64,000 bases of DNA from a virus (IMGVR_UViG_2576861548_000003:32001-96000), one strand, 5' to 3'. Numbered from the stretch's first letter, positions 5,211 through 56,864 are shown. Numbers and translations are program-made. The notes: generated by a model from the sequence alone, not told the origin.

Positions 5211-5978
5211 ATGGAGGAAAACAAATTGACAAAACAAGAAAATGACACATTATCGATATTTGGTAAAGGAAAGACCATTTATCAGGTTGCGGGTAATGAC
5301 GTAGCATTATCATTTGATATTGTACGTAACTATTTAACGAAAGGTAGCGGGCAAGTATCCGATCAGGATATTGTACAGTTTATTAGTATTTGCAAATTTA
5401 ACCAGCTTAATCCATTCTTGAACGAAGCATTCCTTGTCAAGTTTGGACAACAACCGGCGCAGATGATTGTCAGTAAAGAGGCTTTTTTTAAACGAGCTGA
5501 CGCAAGTGAACAGTACGAAGGTTTCAAGGCTGGTGTCATACTTATCAGAGATAATCAAATTGTAGAGGTGGAAGGATGTTTCTATAATGAAAAAACAGAT
5601 GTTCTTGTTGGAGGATGGTGTGAAGTTTATCGTTCAGACCGTAAATTTCCTATTGTAGCGAAAGTGAATCTTTCCGAATACGACAAAAAGCAATCTATAT
5701 GGAATGAAAAGAAATCCACCATGATTTCCAAGATTGCTAAGGTTCAGGCATTACGTGAAGCTTTTCCTGCTCAACTTGGAGCAATGTATACACAAGAAGA
5801 ACAAGAGGTTAAATTTGCAGAATACGAGGATGTGACTGGGAAAGAATCTAAAGGTAATAAACTTGCGGAAATTGCTGCTAAGGCCGCAGGGGTGGAAGAA
5901 CAACCTAACCCGGAGCAATTAGAAACTCAATCTCAAAATAACGCGAATAATAAACCTGTTCAAAAAACACTGTTATGA
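5211..5978 (+). CDS. bet: Bet/RecT-family ssDNA annealing protein
   Basis: CKFNQLNPFLNEAFLVKF, GGWCEVYRSDR, MISKIAKVQALREAFP. Confidence 0.9.
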   Translation: MEENKLTKQENDTLSIFGKGKTIYQVAGNDVALSFDIVRNYLTKGSGQVSDQDIVQFISICKFNQLNPFLNEAFLVKFGQQPAQMIVSKEAFFKRADASEQYEGFKAGVILIRDNQIVEVEGCFYNEKTDVLVGGWCEVYRSDRKFPIVAKVNLSEYDKKQSIWNEKKSTMISKIAKVQALREAFPAQLGAMYTQEEQEVKFAEYEDVTGKESKGNKLAEIAAKAAGVEEQPNPEQLETQSQNNANNKPVQKTLL

Positions 5979-6907
5979 TGGAAAATGATGGTGAAATATG
6001 GAAAGATATAGTTGGATATGAGGGTAGATACCAAGTGTCCAACTATGGAAGAATTAAATCTCTTGATATTAACTTGCATAAACGTGATGGAAAGATAGAG
6101 TTTAGGAAAGGTAAAATTCTTAAAGCCAGTTTAAGCGCGTTTGGCTATCCTCAGTACTGCTTTAGTTCCAGTTTTGGTAAACGAAAGCTCATGAGGATAC
6201 ATAGAGTTGTAGCAGAAACTTTTATTCCTAATCCTGATAAAAAGCCATTTATTGATCATATAAATCGTATAAAGACAGATAATAATGTTAATAATTTGCG
6301 ATGGTGCACAGGCAAGGAGAATATGAATAACCCATTAACAAGGGAATGGTTGAAAAACTGTAGGCCAAGTTTCCACCATTCAGAAGAAGTTAAGAAAAAG
6401 ATAGGGTTATTAAACAAGGGACGCATATTTAAAGAATCTACAAGAGAAAAACTCCGTATTAGAGGATTTCCAGTAATGCAGTTTACTATAAGTGGTGATT
6501 TTATCATGGAGTATAAAAGTCCTTATTATGCTCAAAGTGAGACAGGGGCATTACGAACCCATATTGTAGCTTGTTGTAATGGAAAAAGGAAAACAGCTGG
6601 TGGGTATAGATGGGTCTATAAAAAAAATTATAAAGGGAAGGATCTACCTAAATTGGCAAATAAAAAGCGCATATACAAAACAGGTTATAAGCAAACAAAA
6701 CAGGCTATAATAAATATGCGTAAATCTAAAGAAAAATACCGTAAAGCGGTATTAGTCTTTTCATTAGACGGTTCGTTTCTGTCTGAATATCCTTCAATTA
6801 TTGAAGCAGGCAATGCAACAGGCACAAATTTCGGCTCAATATGTAATTGTTGTAGGGGTAGAATTGGACAATCAAATGGTTACAGATTTAAATATAAAGA
6901 TATATGA
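5975..6907 (+). CDS. NUMOD4-HNH homing endonuclease with NUMOD1-like repeats
   Basis: EIWKDIVGYEGRYQVSNYGRIKS; HRVVAETF..IDHINRIKTDNNVNNLRW; two CC.G.....GY.(W/F) repeats. Confidence 0.9.
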   Translation: MMENDGEIWKDIVGYEGRYQVSNYGRIKSLDINLHKRDGKIEFRKGKILKASLSAFGYPQYCFSSSFGKRKLMRIHRVVAETFIPNPDKKPFIDHINRIKTDNNVNNLRWCTGKENMNNPLTREWLKNCRPSFHHSEEVKKKIGLLNKGRIFKESTREKLRIRGFPVMQFTISGDFIMEYKSPYYAQSETGALRTHIVACCNGKRKTAGGYRWVYKKNYKGKDLPKLANKKRIYKTGYKQTKQAIINMRKSKEKYRKAVLVFSLDGSFLSEYPSIIEAGNATGTNFGSICNCCRGRIGQSNGYRFKYKDI

Positions 6908-7587
6908 TGAATTACAATTTTGAACAAAGGACCATAGGATGGATGCGTGAGCGTCTCGGAAACATTACTGGTAGCAATGTCGGCTTGCTTATGAAAAGCG
7001 GAAGAAACGACATGTTCAGCGACACTGCCAAGAATTACATTTTCCAAGTTGCGGCAGAACGGGCTATGAATCCAGAAATAGTTAATGATGATATTGCATT
7101 TGCCGAATATTTGTCTACTGTCAATGTAGAAAGCAAAGCAATGAGATTCGGGACAGAGCAAGAATCGAGTGCACGCGATTTGTATTCTAGATTGACTGGA
7201 AGGCATATTGTAGAAGTGGGGTCGTGTAAGCACCCCACTATCCCAAACTTTGCCAGTAGTCCTGACGGGTTCTTTTATGATGAAGAATCTGAAGAATGTG
7301 GATGTATAGAAATAAAATCTCCTTCCCAAAATACTTTCATGAAGTACAAAAGCGAAGTTTATGATAATGAATCGCTTCTTAAAGTAAAGTATGAATACTT
7401 TTATCAGTGTATGGCTCACATGATGTGCTGTAATGCAAGATGGACTGACTTTGTAGCTTATAATCCTTTTCAAATAGATCCTATTCACATTGTTCGTATA
7501 CTACCAGATGAAAAGGTCTTTGCAGAAATGGAGAAACGCATCAAAATGGCAGATGACATTATTAACCAAATAGCGGATATTGAATGA
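6904..7587 (+). CDS. YqaJ/lambda-exonuclease family protein
   Basis: QRTIGWMRERLGNITGS, ASSPDG, IEIKSP, YQCMAHM. Confidence 0.9.
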   Translation: MMNYNFEQRTIGWMRERLGNITGSNVGLLMKSGRNDMFSDTAKNYIFQVAAERAMNPEIVNDDIAFAEYLSTVNVESKAMRFGTEQESSARDLYSRLTGRHIVEVGSCKHPTIPNFASSPDGFFYDEESEECGCIEIKSPSQNTFMKYKSEVYDNESLLKVKYEYFYQCMAHMMCCNARWTDFVAYNPFQIDPIHIVRILPDEKVFAEMEKRIKMADDIINQIADIE

Positions 7588-7796
7588 TGAAATCGGACAT
7601 TATAATTAAACAATTAGATAATGGTTGTTTTGACGTACATGTTGATGACAAAAGTACAGATCAATTATCATTTGATGAAATGCTTGGGGTTGTTGCACAA
7701 TTGACTGTACCCAAAAATAAAAGATGCCTTCAGTGGCTTAAAACTAAGGAACAGCATGAAAGTTTTAGGAATAGAAATTTAAAAATAGAGCAATGA
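7584..7796 (+). CDS. Hypothetical protein
   Basis: 70-aa ORF overlapping neighbours' stop/start. Confidence 0.6.
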   Translation: MMKSDIIIKQLDNGCFDVHVDDKSTDQLSFDEMLGVVAQLTVPKNKRCLQWLKTKEQHESFRNRNLKIEQ

Positions 7797-8713
7797 ACAC
7801 ACAATTAGCAATTCAAGAAAGCGACCTAGAACTGGTCGTGAGTGAAAAGACGTTAGGTAGTCTTACTACCAACGCAAAACAAATCAGAGATATGGTAAAA
7901 GCCGCTTTGCCAATGTATGATATCTCCAATTATACAGATGATAATATCGATCAAGCAAAAAAAGATAAAGCGGCTCTAAACAAAGCGGCCAAAGCTCTCA
8001 ACTCCAAACGTCTTGAAATAGAGAAAGAGTTTATGAAACCTTTCGGGGAGTTCAAGGACGTTGTAACCGAAACCGTAAAACTTATTGGTGAGTGCTCTGC
8101 TAGGATTGACACGGTAGTCAAGCAGAACGAGCAGCAATACAAGGACAAGAAGAAAGCCACTATCAAGACCTACTTTGATGGAATGAACGTAAATCTTGTA
8201 GACTTTAACAAGGTTTTCAGGTCTGAATGGCTCAACAAGTCATCCAGTATGAAATCTGTTTGTTCTGACATTGATGCTATATTTGCTAAGGTAGAGAACG
8301 AACTTTCTACCTTAAAGGGGTTTGGTGAGGATTTCGATGTCCTCCGTACTTATTATATGGATACGCTCAACATCACATCCACCATTCAGTATGCCAACCG
8401 TCTGAAAGAGCAGCGTGAGCGTGCCAAAGCAGCAGAAGAGGCGCGCATCAAGGCAGAGCAGGAAAGAAGGGCTTCCGAAGAAGCCCGTAAAGCTGCTGAA
8501 GTAGAACAAGCCAAATCCCGTCCGATCAATCCGTTTGCCATGGCAGGACAAAAAGCCAACGAACAACCTCCTTTTATTAATCATCCCGAAGTACAACAGC
8601 CTGAGCTGTTAACGAGAGCTTTCAAGGTTACTACTACCCGTGAGAATATCATTGCTTTGGGTGACTTCATGAATGAAAAAGGTATTGATTTTGATAAAAT
8701 AGAATTGCCATGA
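7793..8713 (+). CDS. DUF1351-like coiled-coil phage protein
   Basis: AKKDKAALNK..RLEIEKEFMKPF; usual neighbour of Bet/Exo. Confidence 0.75.
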   Translation: MNTQLAIQESDLELVVSEKTLGSLTTNAKQIRDMVKAALPMYDISNYTDDNIDQAKKDKAALNKAAKALNSKRLEIEKEFMKPFGEFKDVVTETVKLIGECSARIDTVVKQNEQQYKDKKKATIKTYFDGMNVNLVDFNKVFRSEWLNKSSSMKSVCSDIDAIFAKVENELSTLKGFGEDFDVLRTYYMDTLNITSTIQYANRLKEQRERAKAAEEARIKAEQERRASEEARKAAEVEQAKSRPINPFAMAGQKANEQPPFINHPEVQQPELLTRAFKVTTTRENIIALGDFMNEKGIDFDKIELP

Positions 8714-9027
8714 GTGAAGCTGGAAAAGAATACAGACAATTTGTAAAACAGCGAAGAGAAGAACGCTATAGTCAATTTGTAAACTCAACCCTTCCTGCCA
8801 TCAAATCTTTAGGCTATGAAGTTATTCAACGAAATGATTATGGATTCGAATTCATTGTTCCTAAAAAAGGATTTGGCTGGGTTATATTCTACCCCAAGGG
8901 TGATAGGATATTATTGTGCAAACAAAATAAATGGATATATGGTGGTTTCTCTTGGATTCGCAAACATATACTTAAAGGCAATGGAAGTATGCAAAACAGA
9001 TGTACAGACTATTATTCGGCTTCTTGA
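8710..9027 (+). CDS. Hypothetical protein
   Basis: 105-aa ORF, ATGA-coupled. Confidence 0.55.
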   Translation: MSEAGKEYRQFVKQRREERYSQFVNSTLPAIKSLGYEVIQRNDYGFEFIVPKKGFGWVIFYPKGDRILLCKQNKWIYGGFSWIRKHILKGNGSMQNRCTDYYSAS

Positions 9028-9154
9028 TAAGAGTGCAGAGCTAATTGATAAATATTGTAAGAAGCCTTGTGAGTGTGATAAAGCAAGACAATGCAGGAAA
9101 ATTAGTAAGAAACTTAAAAATAAAATTGACAATGAAAACTTTGCAAATCAGTGA
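8981..9154 (+). CDS. Small Cys-containing hypothetical protein
   Basis: Likely start ATG 8981 (MEVCKTDVQ) inside track ORF 8816..9154. Confidence 0.5.
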   Translation: MEVCKTDVQTIIRLLDKSAELIDKYCKKPCECDKARQCRKISKKLKNKIDNENFANQ

Positions 9155-9608
9155 ACAAAAAGCTAGAGAACTCTACAAAAGTGGTTCCAGCGAGTTAAAA
9201 TCTATTTTGGAAGAGTCTTTTGGAAAAGATTTTTTCTCTCAAAAGATAACAGATAGAGTTAAAACCTATGAAGATGCATGTCGCGAATTAAGTACCAGTC
9301 CTCTTGATGAAAATAAGTTGATGAAACTCGGTCTTACTAAACATGATATTGCTTATCAAAAGTTGGTAACCATTATCAAGGCCCTTAACGAAGGTTGGGT
9401 ACCGGATGTATGTGATAGTAGTGTATATAGATGGTACCCGTGGTTCAAGACTAATGGTTCTCCTTCCTCTTTCGCTTTCTGCGATTCGCTTTGCGCTTAT
9501 GTTTATGCGGATGCGGGTAGCGGGTCTCGCCTTTGCTTGAAAAGTAAAGAATTGTCAGAGTATTGTGGTAAACAATTCATTGACCTTTGGAAACAGTTCA
9601 TTATTTAA
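9132..9608 (+). CDS. DGR target protein 1 (contains VR1)
   Basis: Likely start ATG 9132 (MKTLQISE); paralog of next gene; carries VR1. Confidence 0.85.
   Translation: MKTLQISEQKARELYKSGSSELKSILEESFGKDFFSQKITDRVKTYEDACRELSTSPLDENKLMKLGLTKHDIAYQKLVTIIKALNEGWVPDVCDSSVYRWYPWFKTNGSPSSFAFCDSLCAYVYADAGSGSRLCLKSKELSEYCGKQFIDLWKQFII
9459..9535 (+). repeat. DGR variable region VR1
   Basis: Manual alignment to TR: 14 differences at TR adenines plus one C>T. Confidence 0.92.
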
Positions 9609-9623
9609 CTAAATATTATCATC

Positions 9624-10004
9624 ATGAAAAAAGAAAATAAAAAGATTACAGAGTTAGTCAAAACGTTTGAGGATGCCCGTAAGCTGACCGGCAGACCGGA
9701 TGTTCCTGACTTTTCCAATCTTCCCACTGACATGCGCAAACATTTTGAGGCACAGTATAAGATGATTGTAATTGCAGAAGCCCTTAACGAGGGATGGATT
9801 CCTGATTGGGATAATTATAATGAATATAAGTATTATCCTTGGTTTGAAATGTCTCCTTCCTCTTTCGCTTTCGACGGTTCGTTTTACGATTGTGCTTATG
9901 CGTATGCGGGTAGCGGGTCTCGCCTTAAATTTCGGACACGCGAGCTTGCAAATTATGCAGCAGAGCAATTTATTGATATTTGGAAAGATATCCAGATAGG
10001 ATAG
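9624..10004 (+). CDS. DGR target protein 2 (contains VR2)
   Basis: 126 aa; shares VKT.EDA, ALNEGW.PD, YPWF, AGSGSRL, QFID.WK with target 1. Confidence 0.88.
   Translation: MKKENKKITELVKTFEDARKLTGRPDVPDFSNLPTDMRKHFEAQYKMIVIAEALNEGWIPDWDNYNEYKYYPWFEMSPSSFAFDGSFYDCAYAYAGSGSRLKFRTRELANYAAEQFIDIWKDIQIG
9852..9926 (+). repeat. DGR variable region VR2
   Basis: 13 differences from TR over 75 nt, all at TR adenines. Confidence 0.95.
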
Positions 10005-10027
10005 GATATAAAGGTTGCCTGTCCTTG

Positions 10028-10104
10028 TCTCCTTCCTCTTTCGCTTTCAACGATTCGAATTACGATAATGCAAATGCGAATGCAGGTAGCAGGTCTCACC
10101 TATG
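10028..10104 (+). repeat. DGR template repeat (TR)
   Basis: TCTCCTTCCTCTTTCGCTTTCAACGATTCGAATTACGATAATGCAAATGCGAATGCAGGTAGCAGGTCTCACCTATG; AAY-rich, just upstream of RT. Confidence 0.95.
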
Positions 10105-10208
10105 TTACAATAATCCAATGGGCAGGGGCCTCACCTCTTGGTGGAAAATAACAATTCAAACGGTGTCGGTAGGGCTTATCCGAAGACTCTTATTAGAAAC
10201 AAAGGCTT

Positions 10209-11195
10209 ATGAAACGATTTGGAAATTTATACTATCGTATTTGTGACATTGATAACCTTTACCTTGCATATACCAAAGCAAGAAAAGGCAAGGGAAATAC
10301 TTATGGGGTCATTCAATTTGAGAAAGAATTGGATGACAACATAAATACCCTTCATAAGGAACTGTCAGAAGGTAAATACGTTACTTCTGAATATCAAACT
10401 TTTATCATACATGATCCTAAGGAACGTGAAATATACCGGCTCCCTTTCCGTGATCGTGTTGTTCATCATGCGATAATGAATATCCTCGAAGATATATGGA
10501 CTCCGATATTCATTTCACATACTTATTCATGTATTAAGGGCAGAGGTATCCATGGAGTAATGAAACATCTAAAGAAAGATTTGAAAGATATCCAAAATAC
10601 AAAATATTGCCTGAAAATGGATATTCGTAAATACTATCCGTCAATAGATCATTTGATACTTAAGAATATTGTCCGAAAGAAGGTTAAGGACAAACGTCTT
10701 CTTGAGTTACTCGACGGTATTATTGATTCTGCTCCGGGAATACCTATCGGTAATTATCTTTCTCAGTTCTTTGCAAACTTGTATCTATCTTACTTTGACC
10801 ACTGGCTTAAAGAGGAAAGACGTATAAAGTATTATTATAGATATGCTGATGATATGGTAATACTTTCATCAAACAAAGAAGAGCTTCACTCTCTGCTTGG
10901 AGATATAAAATCATATCTGCATAATAAGCTTCATTTAAATTTAAAAGACAATTATCAAATATTCCCGGTTGATAATAGAGGAATTGACTTTGTTGGCTAT
11001 GTTTTCTTTCACACTCATATTTTAATGCGGAAAAGTATCAAGAAAAACTTCTGTAGAAAAGTAGCAGTGTTGAACAAAAAGAAAACTACATCCTGCAACT
11101 GCAAGATAGCACTTTGTTCATGGATGGGATGGGCAAAACATTGTAATTCAAAGCACTTAATTAAAACTGTAATCAAAAATGAAAAGGTTTTCTGA
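10209..11195 (+). CDS. DGR reverse transcriptase
   Basis: LPFRDRVVHHA, GIPIGNYLSQFFANLYL (DGR-type SQ motif), YYRYADD; 328 aa with no maturase/endonuclease extension. Confidence 0.95.
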   Translation: MKRFGNLYYRICDIDNLYLAYTKARKGKGNTYGVIQFEKELDDNINTLHKELSEGKYVTSEYQTFIIHDPKEREIYRLPFRDRVVHHAIMNILEDIWTPIFISHTYSCIKGRGIHGVMKHLKKDLKDIQNTKYCLKMDIRKYYPSIDHLILKNIVRKKVKDKRLLELLDGIIDSAPGIPIGNYLSQFFANLYLSYFDHWLKEERRIKYYYRYADDMVILSSNKEELHSLLGDIKSYLHNKLHLNLKDNYQIFPVDNRGIDFVGYVFFHTHILMRKSIKKNFCRKVAVLNKKKTTSCNCKIALCSWMGWAKHCNSKHLIKTVIKNEKVF

Positions 11196-11496
11196 TTTTG
11201 GAATTGATATTGACGCGGGACGTAATATTTTCCCTGTACAGCAAATATCAATAACCGATATACTCAACTGTGAGATAGAGGTACTTGACTATGAATCTGG
11301 AGTTAAAACTCAACATGGAGATAATCGTTGCGTAGTCAAGATTAGGCATGAAGGAGCTGAATATAAATTCTTTACTAACTCTTCTCCGATAAAAGAGGCA
11401 CTTAGTAAAATTTCCAAAGAAGATTTTCCATTTATAGCTACAGTACGTATCAAGAAAATAGGTACTGGTAATAATAAAATGTATTATTTCACTTAA
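11179..11496 (+). CDS. Hypothetical beta-rich protein coupled to DGR RT
   Basis: 105 aa overlapping RT stop; alternating hydrophobic strand pattern. Confidence 0.7.
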   Translation: MKRFSDFGIDIDAGRNIFPVQQISITDILNCEIEVLDYESGVKTQHGDNRCVVKIRHEGAEYKFFTNSSPIKEALSKISKEDFPFIATVRIKKIGTGNNKMYYFT

Positions 11497-11502
11497 AAGA
11501 TA

Positions 11503-11994
11503 TTGTATATGAAAATTACAATCAATAAACCAACTGAATTTGAGGCTGTCTACCTGAAAGTAGATGCAGGTGTTCGCTATTGGGAGGATGCAATAGTAAA
11601 CGGAATAAGAGACATTGATTTATACGAGAGTAATGGTATAGGCAGCCCTCTTATTCCTTGCGCTGTACAAATAAAAGAAGAACCTGACTATAATATATAT
11701 TCAGACCATTATCGTTGGAGACCTATTATAACGATTGAAACTGGTCGAATAGTCAACTGGATGCAGGGAACAACTGCTAATGTTCACTACAAAGTGTGTG
11801 ATGATTTTATATGTGATATTGTTGATGAAGATGATAGTGCTATTGTTTCTTATGACGGCTATGTACCTAAGATCATGTGTCCGGCAGATAAAGGATATGG
11901 TGACTATATCATTATGAATATTGACGAAAACGGATTTATTCAAGGATGGAATAAGGAACTAATTAAAGAACTTGTAAAACAAGAGGAGGATTAA
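11503..11994 (+). CDS. Hypothetical phage protein
   Basis: 163-aa ORF. Confidence 0.7.
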   Translation: MYMKITINKPTEFEAVYLKVDAGVRYWEDAIVNGIRDIDLYESNGIGSPLIPCAVQIKEEPDYNIYSDHYRWRPIITIETGRIVNWMQGTTANVHYKVCDDFICDIVDEDDSAIVSYDGYVPKIMCPADKGYGDYIIMNIDENGFIQGWNKELIKELVKQEED

Positions 11995-11996
11995 TT

Positions 11997-12614
11997 ATGG
12001 CAATGCATACATGGTTTGAGTGCAAGATCCGTTACGAAAAGGTGATGGATAACGGAATGCAGAAGAAAGTGACGGAACCTTATTTGGTAGATGCACTTAG
12101 TTTTACAGAAGCAGAAGCACGTATTATCGAGGAGATGACTCCATTTATAACAGGAGAATTTACCGTTTCCGACATCAAACGAGCTAACTATAGTGAACTT
12201 TTCCCCAGTGACGAGGAAAGTGCTGACCGCTGGTTTAAGTGCAAACTGATCTTTATCACCCTTGACGAGAAAAGCGGTGCCGAGAAAAAGACTTCTACCC
12301 AAGTGATGGTTCAGGCTGCCGACTTGCGCGACGCAGTGAAGAAACTGGACGAGGGCATGAAAGGAACAATGGCTGATTATCAGATCGGTATGGTATCTGA
12401 AACTTCTATTGTAGACGTATTCCCTTATGAAACTAAAGAAGGAAGTAATACTACAGAAGATAAAGAGGTAGTTCGCTTTATTGATAAGTTCCCTGAAGGG
12501 CAATGTACCGAAACTACAGTAGGTGGAAAACCGGTTATCGTTGATAAGACTGGAGGTAAAACAAAAGTAATCCCTAACAATAAATCAGATACTAATGAAG
12601 GAGATCAACAGTGA
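11997..12614 (+). CDS. DUF4494-like protein
   Basis: WFECKIRYEK..YLVDALSFTEAEARIIEEM. Confidence 0.8.
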   Translation: MAMHTWFECKIRYEKVMDNGMQKKVTEPYLVDALSFTEAEARIIEEMTPFITGEFTVSDIKRANYSELFPSDEESADRWFKCKLIFITLDEKSGAEKKTSTQVMVQAADLRDAVKKLDEGMKGTMADYQIGMVSETSIVDVFPYETKEGSNTTEDKEVVRFIDKFPEGQCTETTVGGKPVIVDKTGGKTKVIPNNKSDTNEGDQQ

Positions 12615-12745: not shown

Positions 12746-13546
12746 ATGGCAGAATTTTATAATATGGGAGAACTTATTCCTATCAGAGAAAATAACGGTC
12801 AAAGAGCCGTTAACGCACGTGATTTACATGCTTTCCTAGAAAGTAAGCAACAATTTGCTGACTGGATCAAGAATCGTATTGACAAGTATGATTTCATTGA
12901 AAATCAGGATTATGTAGTTTTTCATAATTCTATGAATAACCCATCTGGCGGTCGCCCCCAAAAAGAATACGCCTTATCCATAAACATGGCGAAAGAACTT
13001 TCCATGATTGAGAATAACGTACGTGGGAAGCAAGCAAGAAAGTATTTCATCAATTGTGAAGAATTTGCCACTCAAAAAATTGTAGAAGAAAAGAAAAGTA
13101 CTAAACGTGAACCATCACTAACAACTAAAGTCCGTGTTGGTCTTGAATGGGTAAAAGGCGTAAGTGAAGTGCTTAATCTAAATGATTCTTCTAAATTATC
13201 TTTAATTAGTAAAGTAGCTGCACCTCTTGGACTTCCGACACCTGATTATACTCCGTCACATGGGATACTTAAATCCGCTACTGAATTGCTCAAAGAAGCG
13301 GGTTTGTCTATCAGCGCACAGGCGTTTAATCAAAGAGCGATTCGGAAAGGTATCTTATGTGATATTAAAAGGAAATCATCAAAAGGTAAAGATAAGCATT
13401 TCAAATCAATAACCGAATCCGGGCTTCTATATGGTGAGAACCAAGTCAACCCTAATAATCCTAAAGAAACGCAGCCGCTTTGGTATAAAGATAAATTCAA
13501 TGAATTATTGATGTTACTTGATTTTAAACTTGTTGAAGCGTTATGA
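12746..13546 (+). CDS. AntA/AntB antirepressor
   Basis: VNARDLHAFLESKQQFADWIKNRI..MAKELSMIENN..ARKYFI. Confidence 0.9.
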   Translation: MAEFYNMGELIPIRENNGQRAVNARDLHAFLESKQQFADWIKNRIDKYDFIENQDYVVFHNSMNNPSGGRPQKEYALSINMAKELSMIENNVRGKQARKYFINCEEFATQKIVEEKKSTKREPSLTTKVRVGLEWVKGVSEVLNLNDSSKLSLISKVAAPLGLPTPDYTPSHGILKSATELLKEAGLSISAQAFNQRAIRKGILCDIKRKSSKGKDKHFKSITESGLLYGENQVNPNNPKETQPLWYKDKFNELLMLLDFKLVEAL

Positions 13547-14645: not shown

Positions 14646-15065
14646 TTATTTATCAATTAGTCCGAACCTTTTTAATTCGGCTTTATTGATTCGAGAGTTA
14701 CTCTTTATCTTATCACAAACAAGGCTAATATCTTCCTCATCCAATGTGCCTAAACTAGTACTTTTAAGAAGTTTGTTCTTCTTTACTATTTTAATTGAAG
14801 AGCAATCTATGTAGCTATCATATGAAAGGAAATCATAACTTTCCCCTTTTATAAGATGTTGCATTGCTCGTACATTAAGTGGCAGATTCATATTAATAAA
14901 GGAGTTAAAGATGACACCACCATAAACGTTTCCATCGTTATCAAAGCCAAGTACTACAAAAAATTTATCACGACTGGTATCTCCGGGTTTGGGTACTACT
15001 CCATTGGCTTTGTTCATCGTAACAAAAAATACATCCCCTATCTTAATTTCCGAAGGTTTCATCAA
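14646..15065 (-). CDS. Putative PemK/MazF-like toxin
   Basis: KIGDVF..DKFFVVLG..DSYIDCSSI..LGTL; overlaps Panacea gene. Confidence 0.6.
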   Translation of the reverse strand: MMKPSEIKIGDVFFVTMNKANGVVPKPGDTSRDKFFVVLGFDNDGNVYGGVIFNSFINMNLPLNVRAMQHLIKGESYDFLSYDSYIDCSSIKIVKKNKLLKSTSLGTLDEEDISLVCDKIKSNSRINKAELKRFGLIDK

Positions 15066-15591
15066 ATGCTATTGAATCATTAATATATTTTACAAGTTCA
15101 TCATTAGCTCCTCCATCAAGGGCAATATCCCCCGGATCAATAACATGATTCCCCTTTTTGTCTCTCGCTTTTTGCCAACAAGTTGTATGAGAAGTTTTTT
15201 CCAACTCCTTAAAACTCATTTTCCCGTATTTGGAAATACATAAATCTAAAGTGTCTTTATCATATTGTGAAAGATAATCCATATTCGGTTCACGTTTAGA
15301 TAATAGATAGTAATCTACAACATGAACATCATCTGTCATTTTTGAAAGAACGCTTTTTTGCCCCCGTATTGTACTATACAAAATTGTTGGTACTGGTCCA
15401 TGGGGAAGAGCACAAAACTTATCTGCTATCATCAGTTGTCCCCAGTCAACCAAGCTGCGTTGATTGGCAAAATATAATATCTTGAACAAATGATAATAGT
15501 CCATACCCCCAGTTTTATTAAGGATATAAAGTACTATTTCTATGATTTTTTGTTGTTCAAATTTTGTCATTTTTTTAGGGTTCTTGGTCAC
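15043..15591 (-). CDS. Panacea (DUF4065/SocA-like) antitoxin
   Basis: LFKILYFA..FCALPHGPVP..ELEKTSH...W. Confidence 0.85.
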   Translation of the reverse strand: MTKNPKKMTKFEQQKIIEIVLYILNKTGGMDYYHLFKILYFANQRSLVDWGQLMIADKFCALPHGPVPTILYSTIRGQKSVLSKMTDDVHVVDYYLLSKREPNMDYLSQYDKDTLDLCISKYGKMSFKELEKTSHTTCWQKARDKKGNHVIDPGDIALDGGANDELVKYINDSIAFDETFGN

Positions 15592-28570: not shown

Positions 28571-28972
28571 ATGAACAGAGAAATAATATTCAGAGGGAAA
28601 AGCACAAATAATGGTAAATGGGTGTATGCAAAATTACATGGGTTTGGCATGGACTTATTTAATGAGTGTGTACAGGAGAATACTGTTGGGCAGTTCACCG
28701 GCTTGCATGACAAGAACGGAAAAGAAATATACGAAGGTGATATTGTTGAACGAATAGTTACAAATGGATACGGTTTTGGTTTTATAGGTGAAGTGGGCTT
28801 TGATAATGGAGTTTTTGGTATAAAACATAAGACTTATAAAGGTTACATTGTATCCAGTTTTGTATATTCTTCGGATTGGAATGATGGTCATGCGCACGGA
28901 ACTGTTTTATATGAATATGAACTAAAAGGAAATATCTACGATAATCCAGAGTTAATCAAGGAGGAATTATGA
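28571..28972 (+). CDS. YopX-family protein (copy 1)
   Basis: REIIFRGK..VGQFTGLHDKNGKEIYEGDIV..GNIYDNPEL. Confidence 0.9.
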   Translation: MNREIIFRGKSTNNGKWVYAKLHGFGMDLFNECVQENTVGQFTGLHDKNGKEIYEGDIVERIVTNGYGFGFIGEVGFDNGVFGIKHKTYKGYIVSSFVYSSDWNDGHAHGTVLYEYELKGNIYDNPELIKEEL

Positions 28973-33108: not shown

Positions 33109-33519
33109 ATGAGGATTTACACAAGTTATTTCGGGAATTACAGAAAACTAGCAGCTGCAAACGTAAAAATGATATGTGTTGCGCTAGGGAAGCCAAGATT
33201 TTATAATGCACCTCAGATCATAGAGGTGGCACCAAGAAGATACATGTTGGATGATAAATGGACTTATGAAGAGTACACGAATATGTATTTGAATGATGTC
33301 CTTGCAAAAGTCAATCCGCAAGAATTGATTCAAACTATCCAGCGACTCAGTGAAGACAAAGACGTCGCTCTCTGCTGTTACGAAAAACCGGGTGATTTCT
33401 GCCATCGTCATATTTTGGCAAAATGGCTTACCGAAAAGACTGGCATTGAAATAACAGAGTTCGGAGTAGTTGAAAGGAAAGAACCTAAATACGAACAAGC
33501 AAGTTTGTTTGAGATATGA
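33109..33519 (+). CDS. DUF488-like protein
   Basis: Likely start ATG 33109 MRIYTSYF; ALCCYEKPGDFCHRHILAKWL. Confidence 0.8.
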   Translation: MRIYTSYFGNYRKLAAANVKMICVALGKPRFYNAPQIIEVAPRRYMLDDKWTYEEYTNMYLNDVLAKVNPQELIQTIQRLSEDKDVALCCYEKPGDFCHRHILAKWLTEKTGIEITEFGVVERKEPKYEQASLFEI

Positions 33520-33917
33520 ACAGAGAAATAATATTCAGAGGGAAAAGCACAAATAATGGTAAATGGGTGTATGCAAAATTACATGGGTTTGGCATGGACT
33601 TATTTAATGAGTGTGTACAGGAGAATACTGTTGGGCAGTTCACCGGCTTGCATGACAAGAACGGAAAAGAAATATATGAAGGTGACATTGTTGAACAAAT
33701 AGTTACAAATGGATACGGTTATGGTTTTATAGGTGAAGTAAGTTTTGATAACGGAGTTTTTGGTATAAAACATAAGACTTATAAAGGTTACATTGTATCT
33801 AGTTTTGTATATTCCTCAGATTGGAATGATGGTCATGCGCACGGAACCGTTTTATATGAATATGAATTAAAAGGAAATATCTACGATAACCCAGAATTAT
33901 TAACCAACTATCAATAG
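33516..33917 (+). CDS. YopX-family protein (copy 2)
   Basis: Near-identical to 28571..28972. Confidence 0.9.
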   Translation: MNREIIFRGKSTNNGKWVYAKLHGFGMDLFNECVQENTVGQFTGLHDKNGKEIYEGDIVEQIVTNGYGYGFIGEVSFDNGVFGIKHKTYKGYIVSSFVYSSDWNDGHAHGTVLYEYELKGNIYDNPELLTNYQ

Positions 33918-34844: not shown

Positions 34845-35744
34845 ATGAACGATAAAGGACTAATAAGAGCATGTGAAAACTCCGGCTGTGGTTGGAAGTG
34901 TTGTTCGTTCGGATCAGACGGACATATTGTAATTTTGCCCCATGAATTTGACGGGCATGAAAAAGAAATCTCCCATTTACAGATTATAGACGATGATTAC
35001 TTTGGCGGTAAAAAGGTAAAATGTATCGCTAAAGATTGCAAATCATGTGACAATGGTTACAAGCCTATTATGTGTCGTACTTATCCTTTGTGGGTAAAAT
35101 CAGTGAAAAAAAGTTTTGTGTTTCGTAGTGGTAAGTGTCCGCTAAATAATGAACAACTTGCTAAACATAAGGAGTTTGTATTAGACATTTTCAACAATTA
35201 CAGAAAAGTGCTGTTGCCTGAAAATGATATAGACACATTCCTTTCAAAAGCATGGATTGACCGTTACGAACCGCTGTTCCCAATAAAGAAGGAAAGCACA
35301 GAGTACAAGATGCAGGTCAAATCTTTATCTATGTCTGATATATCAGATATTGAAAAGATGGAGCAGACGCTTCTTCGCAATCCAGATATGTGTTTCGCAT
35401 CAGAGCCGGAAGACATAGCCAAATGCTTGGAATCAGGTTGCAGTTATGGGTTATTCGTAAATGACAAACTGGCTGCCTATTCTCTTGCATACTTCACAGA
35501 ATACGGTACTGCCTATGTGGATAAATGCTTTGTTCATTCTGATTACAGAGGGAATGGATTCCAATACGTACTTCTCAATTCTAATATTGCTAAATTAATA
35601 TCTAATGGGGTCCAGGAAATCTATGCCATGGTCTCACCGAAAAATGAAGCAAGTATCAAGAGTTTCATTAATGCAGGATTTTCTTTTAAACGAGATAGCA
35701 AATACAAAGAGATTGAACGTTTAATCTTAAAGTGGGAACTATGA
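34845..35744 (+). CDS. YkgJ-like Cys-cluster domain fused to GNAT acetyltransferase
   Basis: CENSGCGWKCC..C..C..C..KPIMCRTYP; GNAT motif A VHSDYRGNGFQ and NEASIKSF..AGF. Confidence 0.8.
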   Translation: MNDKGLIRACENSGCGWKCCSFGSDGHIVILPHEFDGHEKEISHLQIIDDDYFGGKKVKCIAKDCKSCDNGYKPIMCRTYPLWVKSVKKSFVFRSGKCPLNNEQLAKHKEFVLDIFNNYRKVLLPENDIDTFLSKAWIDRYEPLFPIKKESTEYKMQVKSLSMSDISDIEKMEQTLLRNPDMCFASEPEDIAKCLESGCSYGLFVNDKLAAYSLAYFTEYGTAYVDKCFVHSDYRGNGFQYVLLNSNIAKLISNGVQEIYAMVSPKNEASIKSFINAGFSFKRDSKYKEIERLILKWEL

Positions 35745-36619
35745 AAGTTGTTGTCTATACCAAGAATATAATAGAGAACATTGAAAAGGCGCAAAGCTTT
35801 ATTAATGTTCCTATCTCGTTAATGTTCAAAGATTTCTACGAGGATATTTATGGACATATCGCGGATAAAATAAACAATAAGATTTTTGGGCTTCATTTAA
35901 AAGATAGTATATGTTATTCTATTGGCAAAGCGACAAAAGATAATAGTGGTGCCGTGGTGACATCATTTACTGATGTTTGGCAATATCTTAATATCAATGG
36001 TATCGCATGTCAAGGAATACATAATTTCTACATTCCGATTAATGCTTGTGATGATAGAGAAGGTTTAAGTTGTTATGAAGCAAGTAAGTTGGCCAATGAA
36101 ATAAGAATGATTTCAAGCTCCCATATATATGGCTTGATTACTTCTGGATGTCTGAATGAAAACCATCCCTCGGAAAAAGAATTGTACCGTATTTGGAAAA
36201 GCCTACGCGATAATATTGAATCTATTAGTTTGGGTGGTAGCTTTTGGCTTGGACAAGAAACTAAGATCCCAGAATTCACAAGCGATGTTCGTATTGGTGA
36301 ATATATGCTGTTTGGCACAATCCCATATTGTGATTATGAGGTGAGAAAAGGTCTTAATGGCATAGAAATCGAAACAAGGGTTATAGGTATTTACCCAGAA
36401 CGTAATCAATTGATTTTGGATTGTGGCTATTCAATGGTAGACTTAGATAAGTGTCAAATTAGTGATTGTACCAATTTGAAGTTTGTAGATAGTTCTAGTG
36501 AATACTCAATTATGGAGTGTGACCATGTCTCAGATTATTGCATTGGTGATGTGGTTACGTTTGTTCCCAATTATAAATCATTAGTCAAGTTGAGATATGC
36601 AGAACATGAATATAGATAA
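35741..36619 (+). CDS. PLP-dependent racemase, ornithine racemase/YhfX-like (fold III)
   Basis: LMFKD (candidate PLP Lys), DDREGL, ISLGGS, VRIGEYMLFG, LILDCGYSMVD, IGDVVTF..Y. Confidence 0.78.
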   Translation: MKVVVYTKNIIENIEKAQSFINVPISLMFKDFYEDIYGHIADKINNKIFGLHLKDSICYSIGKATKDNSGAVVTSFTDVWQYLNINGIACQGIHNFYIPINACDDREGLSCYEASKLANEIRMISSSHIYGLITSGCLNENHPSEKELYRIWKSLRDNIESISLGGSFWLGQETKIPEFTSDVRIGEYMLFGTIPYCDYEVRKGLNGIEIETRVIGIYPERNQLILDCGYSMVDLDKCQISDCTNLKFVDSSSEYSIMECDHVSDYCIGDVVTFVPNYKSLVKLRYAEHEYR

Positions 36620-38684
36620 ACCTTGGATTGATTATATATCCAATCGTACATTTGGCATGGAACTGGAGTTTGCCGATGGTGACAAACAACGCATCCCGCT
36701 TCCATCCGGTTACAAGTGGACGGACAACAAGTTGACCATGATGAACAATTCGGATGGTTCGGCAGTTACGCATCACGGCCAGTTCGGTGGTGAGATAAAC
36801 ACCCGTCCATACCATTACTGCGCTGAAGACCTTCAGGAGTTGAAAGACTTCATTCATACCATGAAAGATGCGGGAAGCTATCTTATGTGGAATGAAGGCT
36901 TTGATGCGCATCTGTACATCAAGGATATGGACCTGGATGTTATCAAGCGTATGTTTGTCCTCTCTTATTATACTGCATATCCAATCAAACGGATATTTGA
37001 TATTGCGGAGTGGTGGGAAACAAAATATCTCGTACCAAGCCCTCCTTGGGATGTAGTGAAGCGTGTATTGGAAGCAGATACTATTGAGAATCTACTGAAA
37101 GTTTTTAGCAATGGTTCAGATCGAGGACACATCCGGTACTGGCTTAATTTATGTTCTATTGAAAAGATAGGAACGGCAGAATTTAGGATCTTCAATAGCT
37201 CCTGGGATTTCGATAAAATACTGGAAACAATCAAATTCATGTATTCGTTTGTGGAGTACGCCTACCTGCATGAAGATATGGAAGAGTATAAGCAACTCAC
37301 CACAATTGATAGGTGCCTTGAAGTGTTCAATATAGACTATTCTAAGGTTCCCCAAAGACATAAACCGTTACTTTGGGCAGCAGAACACTCGGATAATGTT
37401 ACAATAGTAGGCTCCATGTTTAAGAAATCCAACCGTATGCTTTCCTTTATCAAGAAAGAGGCTTCCAAATTCGATGTAGCCCATGTGGTAAACTCGTATT
37501 ATATGGATATAGAGCAAATACTTACCAACCGTGAGATTAAGGTGTATACAAAGGAGTATTTTATCTACATGATGTATAAGGCAATCAAGGGAGAGATAAA
37601 AGAACTGCGCTTTAATGAAGAATATGAGTTTCTAAGTATTAAATCTGAAAATCCTGCTGAAATTATTGCCACTATTCACCTTTTTAATGCCATCAAAAAG
37701 CATAAGAATTCACAGGATATTTATCACAAATCGCTTTATGACGATTTTATGGCAAAGTTAGAGCATTACCATAAGAAGTATACGGAACGTTATCAAAAGC
37801 TAGTAGATAACCTTAAAAGTAAGTCTATTGAAGTGCTTTATTGTGCTGATATATCGGATGCGATTCTTAACTGTAAAGAGGATGATATACTAATCTATCA
37901 GAATGAATTTCATTCCGGAATGAAAGCTACGAGTAACGCATTGCAACGTTTCTTATTGGATGATTTTGGATCTCAAGAAAGAACTAAAACGAAATATGCA
38001 GAAATAGATGAAGAACAAGTTAATTACATGGCTCTCTCGCAGCATGGATTTATGGGCAGAAGAGAGGTATTCAAAGACCAACGCACATATATTTGGTCTA
38101 ATGTGGTAGAAAGCGGAGATAGTAGCTTTAACAAGCGAACTATCGTTCCTTTAAAATATAAACGGCTTCCGGATGATTATATGCTTACGGATAAAAGCAA
38201 ACTCCGGTTTGTACGTGCTTCTATGGCAGAGATTGATTATCTGCGTATGATTTACTTGAAAAAGGGTATTCTCCTCGGTTCTGCACCATTCTGTTACTTA
38301 TGGTTCTTGGATGATTATGTGTTTGGGGCTTGTATGTTTGATTTCCTGAAGGTAAGCAAATACGGCATGGATGCAGTTTGGATGAAGTCGGATTTCGTGA
38401 TAGACCATCCATTGCCCAAATTGAGTAGATTGCTAATTATGGGTGTACTTTCGTCAGAGTTCAAAGATGAATTGGACATAAGATATAAACATGAATGTGG
38501 AGTGATTGCTACTTCTGTATTTACCGATAAACCGGTAAGTATGAAGTATCGGGGAGTGTTTAAACTGCATGAACGCTGTGTTGGTAAACTCCATTACATA
38601 CAAGATGCAGGCATTCGTGGCAACTTAGATGATATTTTAAAAGATTTTGTGAAAAAATACGGTGATGAGCCGAGAAAGGAATAA
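36597..38684 (+). CDS. Amidoligase (COOH-NH2 ligase) domain fused to a putative DNA-modification region (MTase-like plus Mom/GNAT-like)
   Basis: N-term RTFGMELEF, DGS, GEINT, RYWLNL, GTAEFRIF; C-term SDFVI..KLSRLL..TSVFTDKPVSMKYRG. Confidence 0.72.
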   Translation: MQNMNIDKPWIDYISNRTFGMELEFADGDKQRIPLPSGYKWTDNKLTMMNNSDGSAVTHHGQFGGEINTRPYHYCAEDLQELKDFIHTMKDAGSYLMWNEGFDAHLYIKDMDLDVIKRMFVLSYYTAYPIKRIFDIAEWWETKYLVPSPPWDVVKRVLEADTIENLLKVFSNGSDRGHIRYWLNLCSIEKIGTAEFRIFNSSWDFDKILETIKFMYSFVEYAYLHEDMEEYKQLTTIDRCLEVFNIDYSKVPQRHKPLLWAAEHSDNVTIVGSMFKKSNRMLSFIKKEASKFDVAHVVNSYYMDIEQILTNREIKVYTKEYFIYMMYKAIKGEIKELRFNEEYEFLSIKSENPAEIIATIHLFNAIKKHKNSQDIYHKSLYDDFMAKLEHYHKKYTERYQKLVDNLKSKSIEVLYCADISDAILNCKEDDILIYQNEFHSGMKATSNALQRFLLDDFGSQERTKTKYAEIDEEQVNYMALSQHGFMGRREVFKDQRTYIWSNVVESGDSSFNKRTIVPLKYKRLPDDYMLTDKSKLRFVRASMAEIDYLRMIYLKKGILLGSAPFCYLWFLDDYVFGACMFDFLKVSKYGMDAVWMKSDFVIDHPLPKLSRLLIMGVLSSEFKDELDIRYKHECGVIATSVFTDKPVSMKYRGVFKLHERCVGKLHYIQDAGIRGNLDDILKDFVKKYGDEPRKE

Positions 38685-38687
38685 TAT

Positions 38688-39389
38688 ATGGGAAAATTCA
38701 AGATAGCGGAAGTGCAATTATCTGACATTAAACTGGTCAAGAAAAATGCGCATTTCATGCAGCAGGACACGTTTAATGCCTTAGTGAATAACATTCGTAG
38801 AGACGGTCAATTATCGTCTGTACCATTCTGTGTAAAGCATTCGGATGGCTCTTATACGGTGGTGAGTGGTAATCACCGAACACAAGCGGCAAAAATGGCT
38901 GGGCTTACTTCCATCCATGTTATGTACATAGATGAAGAGGAGACTACAAACGATTGGTTGCTGGCAACACAATTGTCACATAACAGTATAGTTGGGCAAG
39001 ACGATGCGGAGATTTTGAAGCAATTGCTTGATGAAATAACAGATGTCGCACTGAAAGAATATGCGCATATCAGTAATGAAGTTCTGGAAAGTGTGAAGGA
39101 CATTAACTATACGGTTGAAATGCCGAATAATGAAATCGTCCCGGTAACTCTTATGTTTGTTGATACGCAGAAAACCGCATTCGATAAGTTGATGGAAACA
39201 TTGGATTGCTATTCTGAAAAAGAACTTGGCAATCTTACTTTGGTAGATATGGATACAATGCACCGGTTGAATGAAGTATCGGCTAAAGTACAAGCCAAGT
39301 ATAAAATCAAGGCCCAGGCTTTGAGTATTTGCAAAATGTTGGAAATTGTAAATAATGTATTGGAGGGTAATGCGGATGGAGAAAGATAG
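38688..39389 (+). CDS. ParB/Srx-like protein
   Basis: NAHFM..LVNNIRRDG..VVSGNHRTQAAKMAG; directly upstream of terminase. Confidence 0.88.
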   Translation: MGKFKIAEVQLSDIKLVKKNAHFMQQDTFNALVNNIRRDGQLSSVPFCVKHSDGSYTVVSGNHRTQAAKMAGLTSIHVMYIDEEETTNDWLLATQLSHNSIVGQDDAEILKQLLDEITDVALKEYAHISNEVLESVKDINYTVEMPNNEIVPVTLMFVDTQKTAFDKLMETLDCYSEKELGNLTLVDMDTMHRLNEVSAKVQAKYKIKAQALSICKMLEIVNNVLEGNADGER

Positions 39390-54751: not shown

Positions 54752-55624
54752 TTAGGAAACTATTTCTCCAGTATCCTTATTTAATATCAGATGGTATTTC
54801 TTTTTTTCTCCTACTTTGGTAGTGGCTTCAATGTCTAATATTACGTTATCTTTATCTAATGAATATATGGATTGGTTAACTCTTATCTCTTCATCGGTGA
54901 TGGGTACCTGCCAAATTAGATATTCATCATATATATACATTGAAAGGTCGACACACATAACCATATTGTCATAGATATATACCATATTACTGTAAGATAT
55001 AGGCAAGTAATTATTTCTTTCAATTTCTTTAATCCATCCTTCGGTACCTGTAGCATTATTCCCAATTGTCTGCTTTAAATCACTATCCAATACTCCAATT
55101 TCGTAACCTCCTGTTCTTGTGGTTATATAAATGGCAACATATTCTCCATACCAATCTGCTATTGCTTCTGGATAGAAGACAGTTTCTTCAAAGCCATTAT
55201 TATGTTCTTTATCAAAATATTCTTTTTTAAGGACCTTACCATCTTTTATTTTCAAGATGAATTTATGTGGGTGATTAGCCATATTTGCGTATAAGCTAAC
55301 CAATATATAGAAATAGTCGTCTTTTTTTAAGGCACTTTGAAGAAAACACCCGTTGACTATATATTCTCTTTTATCTCCGAACCCAAGATCATGAGTGTAA
55401 TTCTCTGCTTTATCTTTGATAGTAAATACCTTGTTCCCTGATTCATCAATAGCCTCTATATAGTAATCTCCTTCAAAGATATAGGCTTGTAGTTTTAAAT
55501 CATCTACTAAGATAGCACTGTCTATTTTATATTGGGGCTGATCTGGTTCATTAACAAGATTGTCGTTTGAACTACAACTTGTAAATATAATTATTGCTAT
55601 TATAAAGAATAAATTTTTTCTCAT
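54752..55624 (-). CDS. Lipoprotein moron
   Basis: MRKNLFFIIAIIIFTSC lipobox; opposite strand to tail genes. Confidence 0.8.
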   Translation of the reverse strand: MRKNLFFIIAIIIFTSCSSNDNLVNEPDQPQYKIDSAILVDDLKLQAYIFEGDYYIEAIDESGNKVFTIKDKAENYTHDLGFGDKREYIVNGCFLQSALKKDDYFYILVSLYANMANHPHKFILKIKDGKVLKKEYFDKEHNNGFEETVFYPEAIADWYGEYVAIYITTRTGGYEIGVLDSDLKQTIGNNATGTEGWIKEIERNNYLPISYSNMVYIYDNMVMCVDLSMYIYDEYLIWQVPITDEEIRVNQSIYSLDKDNVILDIEATTKVGEKKKYHLILNKDTGEIVS

Positions 55625-55637
55625 AAGTTGTCTGTTG

Positions 55638-56762: not shown

Positions 56763-56864
56763 GCTTTTATTGTTGTATAATAATATATGCACAAATATAT
56801 TTTATATAACAATATAAACAAAATTAAAGATAAAAAAATAATCTATTAAATATGTTTTTGCTAT

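Follow-up and report, generated by a model that had tools for sequence, protein, structure and literature searches.

What does a diversity-generating retroelement (DGR) do in a phage when it does not diversify a tail protein? The role of the non-structural targets of phage DGRs is a question raised in 2021. It arises again in a viral stretch of 64,000 nucleotides, IMGVR_UViG_2576861548_000003:32001-96000, which we call the window: It represents bases 32001-96000 of a 109,908-base IMG/VR provirus record. The original prediction placed in its early region a DGR whose template repeat (TR) diversifies two small tandem paralogues, each with one variable repeat (VR). The present cassette poses it in its cleanest form, as a DGR without a tail target which serves two very small soluble proteins alone. 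As described below, it is real, active and widespread.

The TR is found at 10028-10102 of the plus strand, 24 nt past the stop codon of target gene 2. It is 75 nt long, non-coding, and contains 19 adenines. VR1 (9459-9533, plus strand) codes for residues 110-134 of target 1, a protein of 158 aa, and VR2 (9852-9926, plus strand) for residues 77-101 of target 2, which has 126 aa. There are 13 differences between TR and VR2, all 13 at TR adenines. The 15 differences between TR and VR1 consist of 14 at TR adenines and a C to T change at TR position 10071, corresponding to 9502 in the window. The substitutions in VR1 and VR2 are not the same set, and an extended comparison shows that the similarity stops at each border of the 75-mer. 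For random placement over 75 places, the hypergeometric p is 2.1e-10 for VR2 and 2.9e-10 for VR1, so a chance origin of the adenine-site differences is excluded at about 2e-10 for each VR. All coordinates and adenine counts of the original prediction hold exactly.

Both VRs finish in GCGGGTAGCGGGTCTCGCCTT, whose TR counterpart is GCAGGTAGCAGGTCTCACCTA. The prediction had compared this TR end (10082-10102, plus strand) to the IMH* element of other DGRs, and its VR counterparts (9513-9533 and 9906-9926) to the initiation of mutagenic homing (IMH) element. Four fixed TR to VR differences are found in this 3' 21-mer, three A to G and one A to T, identical in VR1 and VR2. In relatives, the VRs invariably have G at the equivalents of TR positions 10084, 10091 and 10098, and T at that of 10102, and no variation is listed at these four places in the contigs of four sequencing runs described below. 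In target 1 homologues R133 is invariant and G131 nearly invariant. The upstream TR adenines, from 10049 to 10080, vary freely in the VRs. Judging from these sequences, the 21-mer appears to behave in an IMH/IMH*-like manner, in agreement with the prediction. The boundary is not sharp, because variation is seen at the place corresponding to A10088 in 3 of 13 target 2 sequences. Each VR is followed by about 25 further codons, and the IMH-like end is therefore coding sequence. Since the 21-mer differs in a fixed way between TR and VRs, information flows from TR to VR only.

Translated in the VR frame, the TR reads SPSSFAFNDSNYDNANANAGSRSHL, with five AAY codons. Eight codons can change in each target, which gives a calculated 4.86e7 protein variants per target. 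A scan which ignores the TR adenines was run on the whole 109,908-base provirus record, and no further VR appeared in it or in the window. VR1 and VR2 are thus the sole VRs found in the provirus, and the targets of the DGR are the two small tandem paralogues, not a tail gene, as had been claimed. No GC-rich hairpin is found 3' of the VRs, only AT-rich 6-nt palindromes downstream of either of them.

Is the system at work in nature? Contigs from four public runs (X4, X7, X8 and X17) were compared with window positions 8700-11500. The contig from X4 has 11 substitutions in 2,801 bases, all of them inside VR1. Run X7 shows 24 differences: 11 in VR1, 11 in VR2 and two in the reverse transcriptase (RT) gene. 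There are 23 differences in X8, and the 18 which are listed all fall in the VRs; X17 is more diverged than the other three. All the VR places listed are equivalents of TR adenines, with the exception of 9502. The C to T change at this position is private to our record: All four runs read C, like the TR. We should also note that X8 and X17 are gut RNA libraries, from two studies, whose contigs cover the cassette, in X8 within a single contig of 9,712 bases.

The same pattern is found when homologous proteins are compared. An alignment of 105 target 1 sequences was prepared from the window protein and its listed close homologues. Of the latter, 120 in number, the 104 with a length of exactly 158 aa were used, and the other 16 were omitted. 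Hypervariable columns are only 117, 118, 120-123, 125 and 127, with entropies from 1.35 to 3.64 bits; the mean column entropy outside the VR is 0.27 bits. The residues observed fit A-to-N changes: D, G, V or A at GAT, Y, C, F or S at TAC, and 12-14 kinds at AAY codons. For target 2, 13 distinct sequences were obtained from 15 close loci. VR2 contains 17 variable columns, 15 of them at TR-adenine places. At least three letters occur in 19 columns, 15 of which are these places. The adenine-specific variation foreseen for both VRs is therefore observed, they are not invariant: Run X4 differs in VR1 alone and X7 in both.

As neither an Avd gene nor a GC-rich hairpin 3' of the VRs is found, one might suspect that there is no functioning system here, only a chance similarity, plain paralogue conservation or the remnant of a dead DGR. 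Against this stand the adenine-only differences (p about 2e-10 for each VR), near-identical phages whose contigs differ in the VRs alone, residue spectra as expected of A-to-N change, an intact RT reading frame and a TR-VR cassette conserved in 61 of 64 loci. Such a reading is refuted by homologue variability, cassette conservation and VR-only contig differences, and we consider its probability negligible. The DGR is real and active.

The conservation of the cassette was studied in 64 cases, the window and 63 loci with an RT match longer than 250 aa. A TR-VR pair is present in 61 of them, 56 with two VRs, three with three and two with one. In 61 of the 64 cassettes, too, the TR follows the last target and precedes the RT. 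TR adenines account for 1,659 of 1,683 TR-VR differences, a share inflated by a scoring which favours adenine mismatches. The order of the cassette is targets, TR, a structured spacer RNA, RT and a small protein that we call p105. A long target gene (about 157 aa) followed by a short one (about 126 aa) is the usual layout in related loci. Gene neighbourhoods were obtained from 80 IMG/VR loci found with a close target alignment, 67 of which carry the RT.

The RT gene (10209-11195, plus strand) begins 106 nt past the TR and codes for a protein of 328 aa with YADD and IGNYLSQ motifs. The I/LGxxxSQ motif is a mark of DGR reverse transcriptases. The protein matches Pfam RVT_1 at 4.9e-17 and phrog_1423 at 1.8e-131, and scores under the curated cut-offs of the group II, retron and DRT models. 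The nearest phage DNA corresponds to RTs of crAss-like phages, with 67-71% identity in the longer matches and a maximum of 77% over 126 nt. The 109,908-base record gave no match to Avd (PF05635) at E ≤ 1; control genomes did match. Avd is absent from 26% of the DGRs covered by the survey figures in Wu 2018 (PMC5758913).

The 106-nt spacer between TR and RT contains a structured RNA at 10127-10202 of the plus strand. It has a hairpin (10131-10135 with 10140-10144) and a helix (10162-10166 with 10186-10190) around a small hairpin at 10172-10181, which is larger in some relatives. The Rfam motif RT-17 (RF03020), an RNA associated with reverse transcriptase genes, matches the spacer over its full length (positions 1-95 of 95) on the RT strand, with 33.4 bits and E 6.3e-4, below the gathering score of 40.4. 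A comparison of 32 cassettes shows compensatory changes in 8 of the 11 predicted pairs. The alignment cells are paired in 95.5% of cases, against 83.3% in shuffles, and the covariation score is 0.477, against 0.230 in shuffles, a value reached by none of 500; slid controls give at most 0.152.

The gene of p105 (11179-11496, plus strand) overlaps the RT stop by 17 nt at its start. The protein has 105 aa and an isoelectric point (pI) of 7.8. Among the 67 loci with an RT, 61 have a p105 homologue beside it, and the family includes 452 homologues, all of about 105 aa and unnamed. Its AlphaFold2 (AF2) model has a pLDDT of 87.8 and predicts an OB-like barrel, beta1-beta2-beta3-alpha-beta4-beta5, with strands at residues 32-44, 47-57 and 60-66, a helix at 69-77 and strands at 85-94 and 99-104. 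The top structural matches are OB folds, all weak: a RuvBL2 domain (Z 5.8), the single-stranded DNA-binding protein (SSB) P12 of PRD1 (Z 5.5) and Rim1 (Z 5.2), the next one having Z 5.0. The best Foldseek E value is 0.11. On the basis of this model, p105 is a candidate nucleic-acid-binding helper. An acidic open reading frame of 161 aa (11509-11994, plus strand, pI 4.38) is found 3' of p105, present only in close relatives and in two further loci (L078 and L079). It recalls the CH1 gene of Wu 2018 by size and charge.

What kind of proteins are the targets? Target gene 1, the long form, covers 9132-9608 and target gene 2, the short form, 9624-10004, both on the plus strand. They match phrog_11581 at 9.6e-36 and 1.6e-24, respectively, and are 47% identical (E 3e-35); target 2 lacks the first 35 or so residues of target 1. 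No Pfam family is matched by target 1, and NCBIfam and PADLOC give nothing for the targets, p105, p163 or a neighbouring DUF4494 protein. The family of target 1 is large, with 2,208 homologues at E ≤ 1e-3 after clustering at 90%, and 2,856 clusters at 50% identity. Nearly all members have 150-165 aa. Some, of 275-305 aa, hold two copies, they are natural tandem fusions. None of 20 longer relatives has a Pfam domain above the cut-off, and a search among longer proteins gave a single match, of 345 aa. Kyte-Doolittle means over 19 residues reach at most 0.68 in target 1 and 0.40 in target 2. Neither a membrane span nor a signal-like N-terminus is apparent in these proteins by this calculation, used in place of a dedicated predictor, which agrees with the claim that they lack signal and transmembrane segments.

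The AF2 model of target 1 is a confident one, with pLDDT 92.8 and pTM 0.86. Helices extend to residue 85, followed by a beta-hairpin (100-107 and 114-122), the variable loop and two C-terminal helices. No solved structure matches it: The best Foldseek E value against the PDB is 0.75, with none at E ≤ 0.001, the best VIA-align Z over 48,161 chains is 3.4, and the best E value in a PDB sequence profile search is 0.21. The BFVD matches are limited to uncharacterised proteins of phages, in part crAss-like ones, and those in the ESM Atlas to clusters of hypothetical proteins. C-type lectin (CLec) proteins of DGRs are absent from the Foldseek and VIA-align lists, which does not show that the folds are different. 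On the other hand, the family consensus SGFxF...VGSRLCFKS may be aligned by eye with the CLec3 VR peptides given in Wu 2018, which end in ...AGFG...VGSRLCFIP. We read the window targets as a putative reduced lectin-type variable module in a helical scaffold. With regard to the minimal CLec fold raised in the original prediction, the model is confident and the VR motif is CLec-like, no solved fold is matched, and a reduced or half lectin module would be compatible with these results.

The position of the cassette is the next point. The window is a Bacteroidota-type prophage, with an integrase containing Phage_int_SAM_5 and Arm-DNA-bind_5 domains and a cI-like repressor. Its rightward early genes code for a LuxR-type regulator, RecT (5211-5978), HNH (5975-6907), YqaJ (6904-7587) and DUF1351 (7793-8713) proteins, then come the cassette, DUF4494, AntA (12746-13546) and VRR-NUC. 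Structural genes begin at about 39 kb, with the portal gene at 42472 and the tape measure gene at 56948, and no VR is found in the structural module (42-64 kb). The cassette does lie between recombination and antirepressor genes, far from the tail, as originally described: RecT, YqaJ and DUF1351 are upstream and AntA downstream. In ten divergent loci, the neighbours of the cassette are genes for RecT, SSB, PD-(D/E)XK nucleases, FtsK/HerA, an SNF2 helicase, primase, methylases, cI-like repressors and antirepressors; two of these loci have it inside a Mu-like early region. On backbones of both the lambdoid-like and the Mu-like type, it is placed among replication, recombination or regulatory genes in all the contexts examined.

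We propose that the window contains an active, Avd-less DGR of the Bacteroidota "Lineage 3 / CLec3-VR" kind, devoted to two small early-region paralogues. Sequence and population data show that the TR is copied with adenine-specific errors, the copy replacing the VR of either target. By analogy with BPP-1, a transcript of TR and spacer, shaped by the conserved RT-17-like structure, would be reverse-transcribed by the RT. The OB-like p105 may replace Avd as a nucleic-acid-binding helper, as its position and weak fold match suggest. The targets would be cytoplasmic binders, expressed early, whose variable loop recognises a variable partner in a conflict between phage and host or between phages. 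This partner could be a component of host defence to be neutralised, or a component of a rival phage to be excluded. The original prediction, which took the targets for intracellular binders with a possible anti-defence or host-takeover role, drew on the position of the genes. An intracellular role is suggested by a location in early modules which is kept on phage backbones not related to each other, and also by the small size of the proteins, the absence of hydrophobic segments and of fusions, and a DGR which serves them alone. We give the explanation as a whole about an even chance of being correct; that the targets are variable cytoplasmic binders in such conflicts is a tentative suggestion, somewhat short of even.

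Several facts weigh against this explanation. The VR module, with its CLec3-class motif, is of a kind used by phage adhesins. In Versailles, LoVEphage and the crAss-like phage cr60_1, one TR serves both a small homologue of our targets and a second VR, located beside the RT. Five of 120 family members match phrog_5302, which is labelled "tail protein", and the Versailles homologue was annotated as a tail protein by its depositors. The RNA-library contigs X8 and X17 fit transcription of the region but cannot prove it. The long and short proteins may act together or separately. As a helper, p105 is a candidate drawn from a model, and the basis of this role is adjacency together with weak fold matches (Z ≤ 5.8).

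Some of these facts point to a different role: The targets could be adhesins, associated with the virion or released, which dock on the tail or act after lysis, so that the DGR tunes host range or adherence as in BPP-1. The CLec3-class VR motif occurs in phage and pilus adhesins, the TR of cr60_1 serves a Mtd/sulfatase-like tail protein as well as the small protein gp86, and that of Versailles and LoVEphage a second VR beside the RT. The "tail protein" labels, from phrog_5302 for 5 of the 120 members and from the Versailles annotation, go in the same direction, but they are automatic and may reflect the shared VR module only. Moreover, the genes are placed among early, replication or recombination genes in every context examined, they are never fused to fibre or baseplate domains, the Kyte-Doolittle calculation reveals no signal peptide, and the structural module at 42-64 kb is without a VR. 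We regard adhesins as rather unlikely.

The conflict reading has a special case, set apart by a predicted expression in the lysogen and not in the early lytic phase. The targets would then be exclusion factors made in the lysogen and directed at components of competitor phages which enter the cell; through the DGR, the lysogen lineage would keep up with these competitors. All DGR phages in the survey as reported in Benler 2018 (PMC6199706) are temperate, DGR cassettes lie near repressor and antirepressor genes, and the region is found in gut RNA-library contigs, which is compatible with this idea and no proof of it. The genes of the window, though, belong to a rightward early operon, co-oriented with recombination genes, and not to a divergently transcribed moron beside the repressor or the integrase. 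Exclusion factors of this kind appear improbable.

The pairing of target genes suggests another variant, in which the long and short proteins would form a two-chain intracellular binder with two diversified loops in one composite, antibody-like site, diversified with the assistance of the OB-fold helper and used by a temperate phage to adjust counter-defence or exclusion to variable proteins of the host or of rival phages. The pairing of long and short genes in most related loci, the tandem fusions of 275-305 aa and the lack of a tail target are in favour of this idea; the long and short proteins may, as noted, also act separately. We consider a composite site a speculative and rather improbable proposal.

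Other features of the window deserve mention. The DUF4494 protein (11997-12614, plus strand, 205 aa, pI 4.75) matches its Pfam family at 2.8e-63. A DUF4494 match is found at 6 kb or less from a target in 58 of the 80 loci, often directly upstream of target 1. It is a frequent neighbour which may not belong to the DGR system; literature searches for DUF4494, alone or together with diversity-generating retroelement, gave no match. The HNH/NUMOD4 homing-endonuclease gene (5975-6907, plus strand) separates RecT from YqaJ. It looks like a mobile insertion, because RecT and YqaJ abut in one related locus (L003); an insert is found in another (L004). The region 14646-15591 of the minus strand codes for a SocA/Panacea-domain protein of 182 aa and an overlapping partner of 139 aa, which may be a toxin-antitoxin pair. 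Two paralogues with a YopX domain, of 133 aa each, are found 5 kb apart on the plus strand (28571-28972 and 33516-33917). A run of plus-strand genes at 34845-39389 may be a DNA-modification module: It codes for a GNAT acetyltransferase, a D-serine-dehydratase-like protein, a 695-aa amidoligase/DAM-like/phage-GNAT fusion and a ParB_N protein. Two genes on the minus strand (54752-56792), one with HSDR_N domains, lie just upstream of the tape measure gene; they resemble a moron, or an insertion of defence type, placed inside the tail module.

The target family is abundant, as its 2,856 clusters at 50% identity indicate. Small DNA runs with isolate-like organism labels carry the region with differences in the VRs only. 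Since these runs are labelled like isolate genomes, the element seems to be present in cultured strains, and in that case the cassette would be a tractable model. The 126-aa target, with a confidently predicted fold which matches no solved structure, could be a minimal scaffold for a binding loop that tolerates a DGR. In turn, mutagenic retrohoming might proceed by an Avd-independent route, for which p105 is a candidate.

How does the cassette compare with known systems? The original prediction contrasted it with characterised phage DGRs of the BPP-1 type, which vary receptor-binding tail proteins. That contrast was overstated: Non-structural targets already appear in Benler 2021 and the same layout in Wu 2018, so the kind of cassette is not new and its novelty is limited. 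As stated in the relevant passages of Benler 2021 (PMC8008677), the known targets of phage DGRs had been stressed as structural until then; the DGRs of Quimbyviridae diversify a tail-side gene and a non-structural gene located among methylases, and the non-structural target sits among defence-related genes.

Versailles and LoVEphage are among the closest known cases. As in the window, they have a small target without a signal peptide among replication, recombination or methylase genes, and their homologues are 29-32% identical to the window target over the full length (tblastn). The Versailles homologue, of 193 aa, is found among SbcC, RecT and NinB genes and matches the window family over its full length, with an hhalign probability of 99.7% and E 3.6e-26. 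Its VR matches, over 107 nt, a TR beside the RT at a distance of 44 kb, with 14 of 14 differences at adenines; by eye, the two VRs of Versailles are mostly independent. The LoVEphage homologue, of 194 aa, is found among methylases, and its VR matches the TR beside the RT over 113 nt, with 19 of 19 differences at adenines. The LoVEphage RT is split over three frames, as the corresponding passage of Benler 2021 (PMC8008677) describes for Quimbyvirus. The homology of the Quimbyvirus protein to the window family is inferred through LoVEphage, because the Quimbyvirus sequence itself was not found. In both phages the homologue, of about 193 aa, is located 14-46 kb from the RT and shares its TR with a second target beside the RT, whereas the window targets, of 158 and 126 aa, are in tandem, adjoin TR and RT, and are the sole targets. 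They also lack a segment of about 30 residues before the VR which completes the CLec3-type motif in the Versailles homologue.

A further case is cr60_1. Its gp86 homologue has 135 aa and a 63-nt VR with 16 differences, 14 of them at adenines. This VR matches the TR which serves a tail protein, annotated as Mtd/sulfatase-like, 46 kb away, with a score of 36.8; 60 shuffles gave 15.2 +/- 1.3, and 19.8 at most. In cr60_1 (NC_055891.1, regions L084:4207-4269 and L085:2991-3232) the two VRs have in common many identical A-to-N substitutions and one non-adenine change. They look as if copied from one another, by VR-to-VR conversion or in a single event, and not independently mutated. This case suggests that the small protein might be an archive which backs up the tail VR, an idea that we reject here: The provirus has no tail VR.

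The remaining comparisons are with DGRs in which the target is a large or structural protein, and with bacterial entries. In the accounts available of BPP-1 (mtd-avd-TR-brt), as in the window, the TR is upstream of the RT with a spacer, VR changes are adenine-specific, the VR lies close to the target's 3' end, the TR contains AAY codons, and fixed 3' differences are of the IMH/IMH* type. According to the same accounts, its target is a receptor-binding protein of the tail fibre which has a full C-type lectin fold; the model of the window target gave no match to a C-type lectin structure. They also describe a requirement for Avd and a GC-rich hairpin after the VR, whereas the window has no Avd match, no such hairpin and no tail target. 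The Hankyphage DGR target has 2,225 aa in the description given by Benler 2018 (PMC6199706). It differs from the window family, as do the targets of the Bacuni phage DGR, pilin-tip-like in what is reported of them. The Bacteroides Lineage 3a DGRs, in the sections of Wu 2018 (PMC5758913) which describe them, are like the window in being Avd-less, with a VR ending in ...GSRLCF and a small gene which overlaps the RT stop. Their targets (CotH/CLec3), multi-domain proteins of about 2,000 aa according to these sections, are unlike those of the window. Their small gene, CH1, codes for 160-169 aa with a pI of 4.7 there, against 105 aa and 7.8 for p105, a comparison made by size and pI.

The same anatomy is found in a bacterial entry, row 120 of Table S1 in Wu 2018 (PMC5758913), for Galbibacter sp. 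ck-I2-15. This row lists a Lineage 3 DGR with the order TG-TG-TR-RT and no accessory gene, targets of 471 and 372 nt, a TR of 69 nt, an RT of 978 nt, a VR of class CLec3/f4 and no GC-rich stem-loop after either VR. Row 121, for Pedobacter arcticus, is similar in the same table. As far as the table row goes, the Galbibacter DGR has the anatomy of the window cassette, and the entry comes without a phage context, a non-structural location, a p105-type gene or population data.

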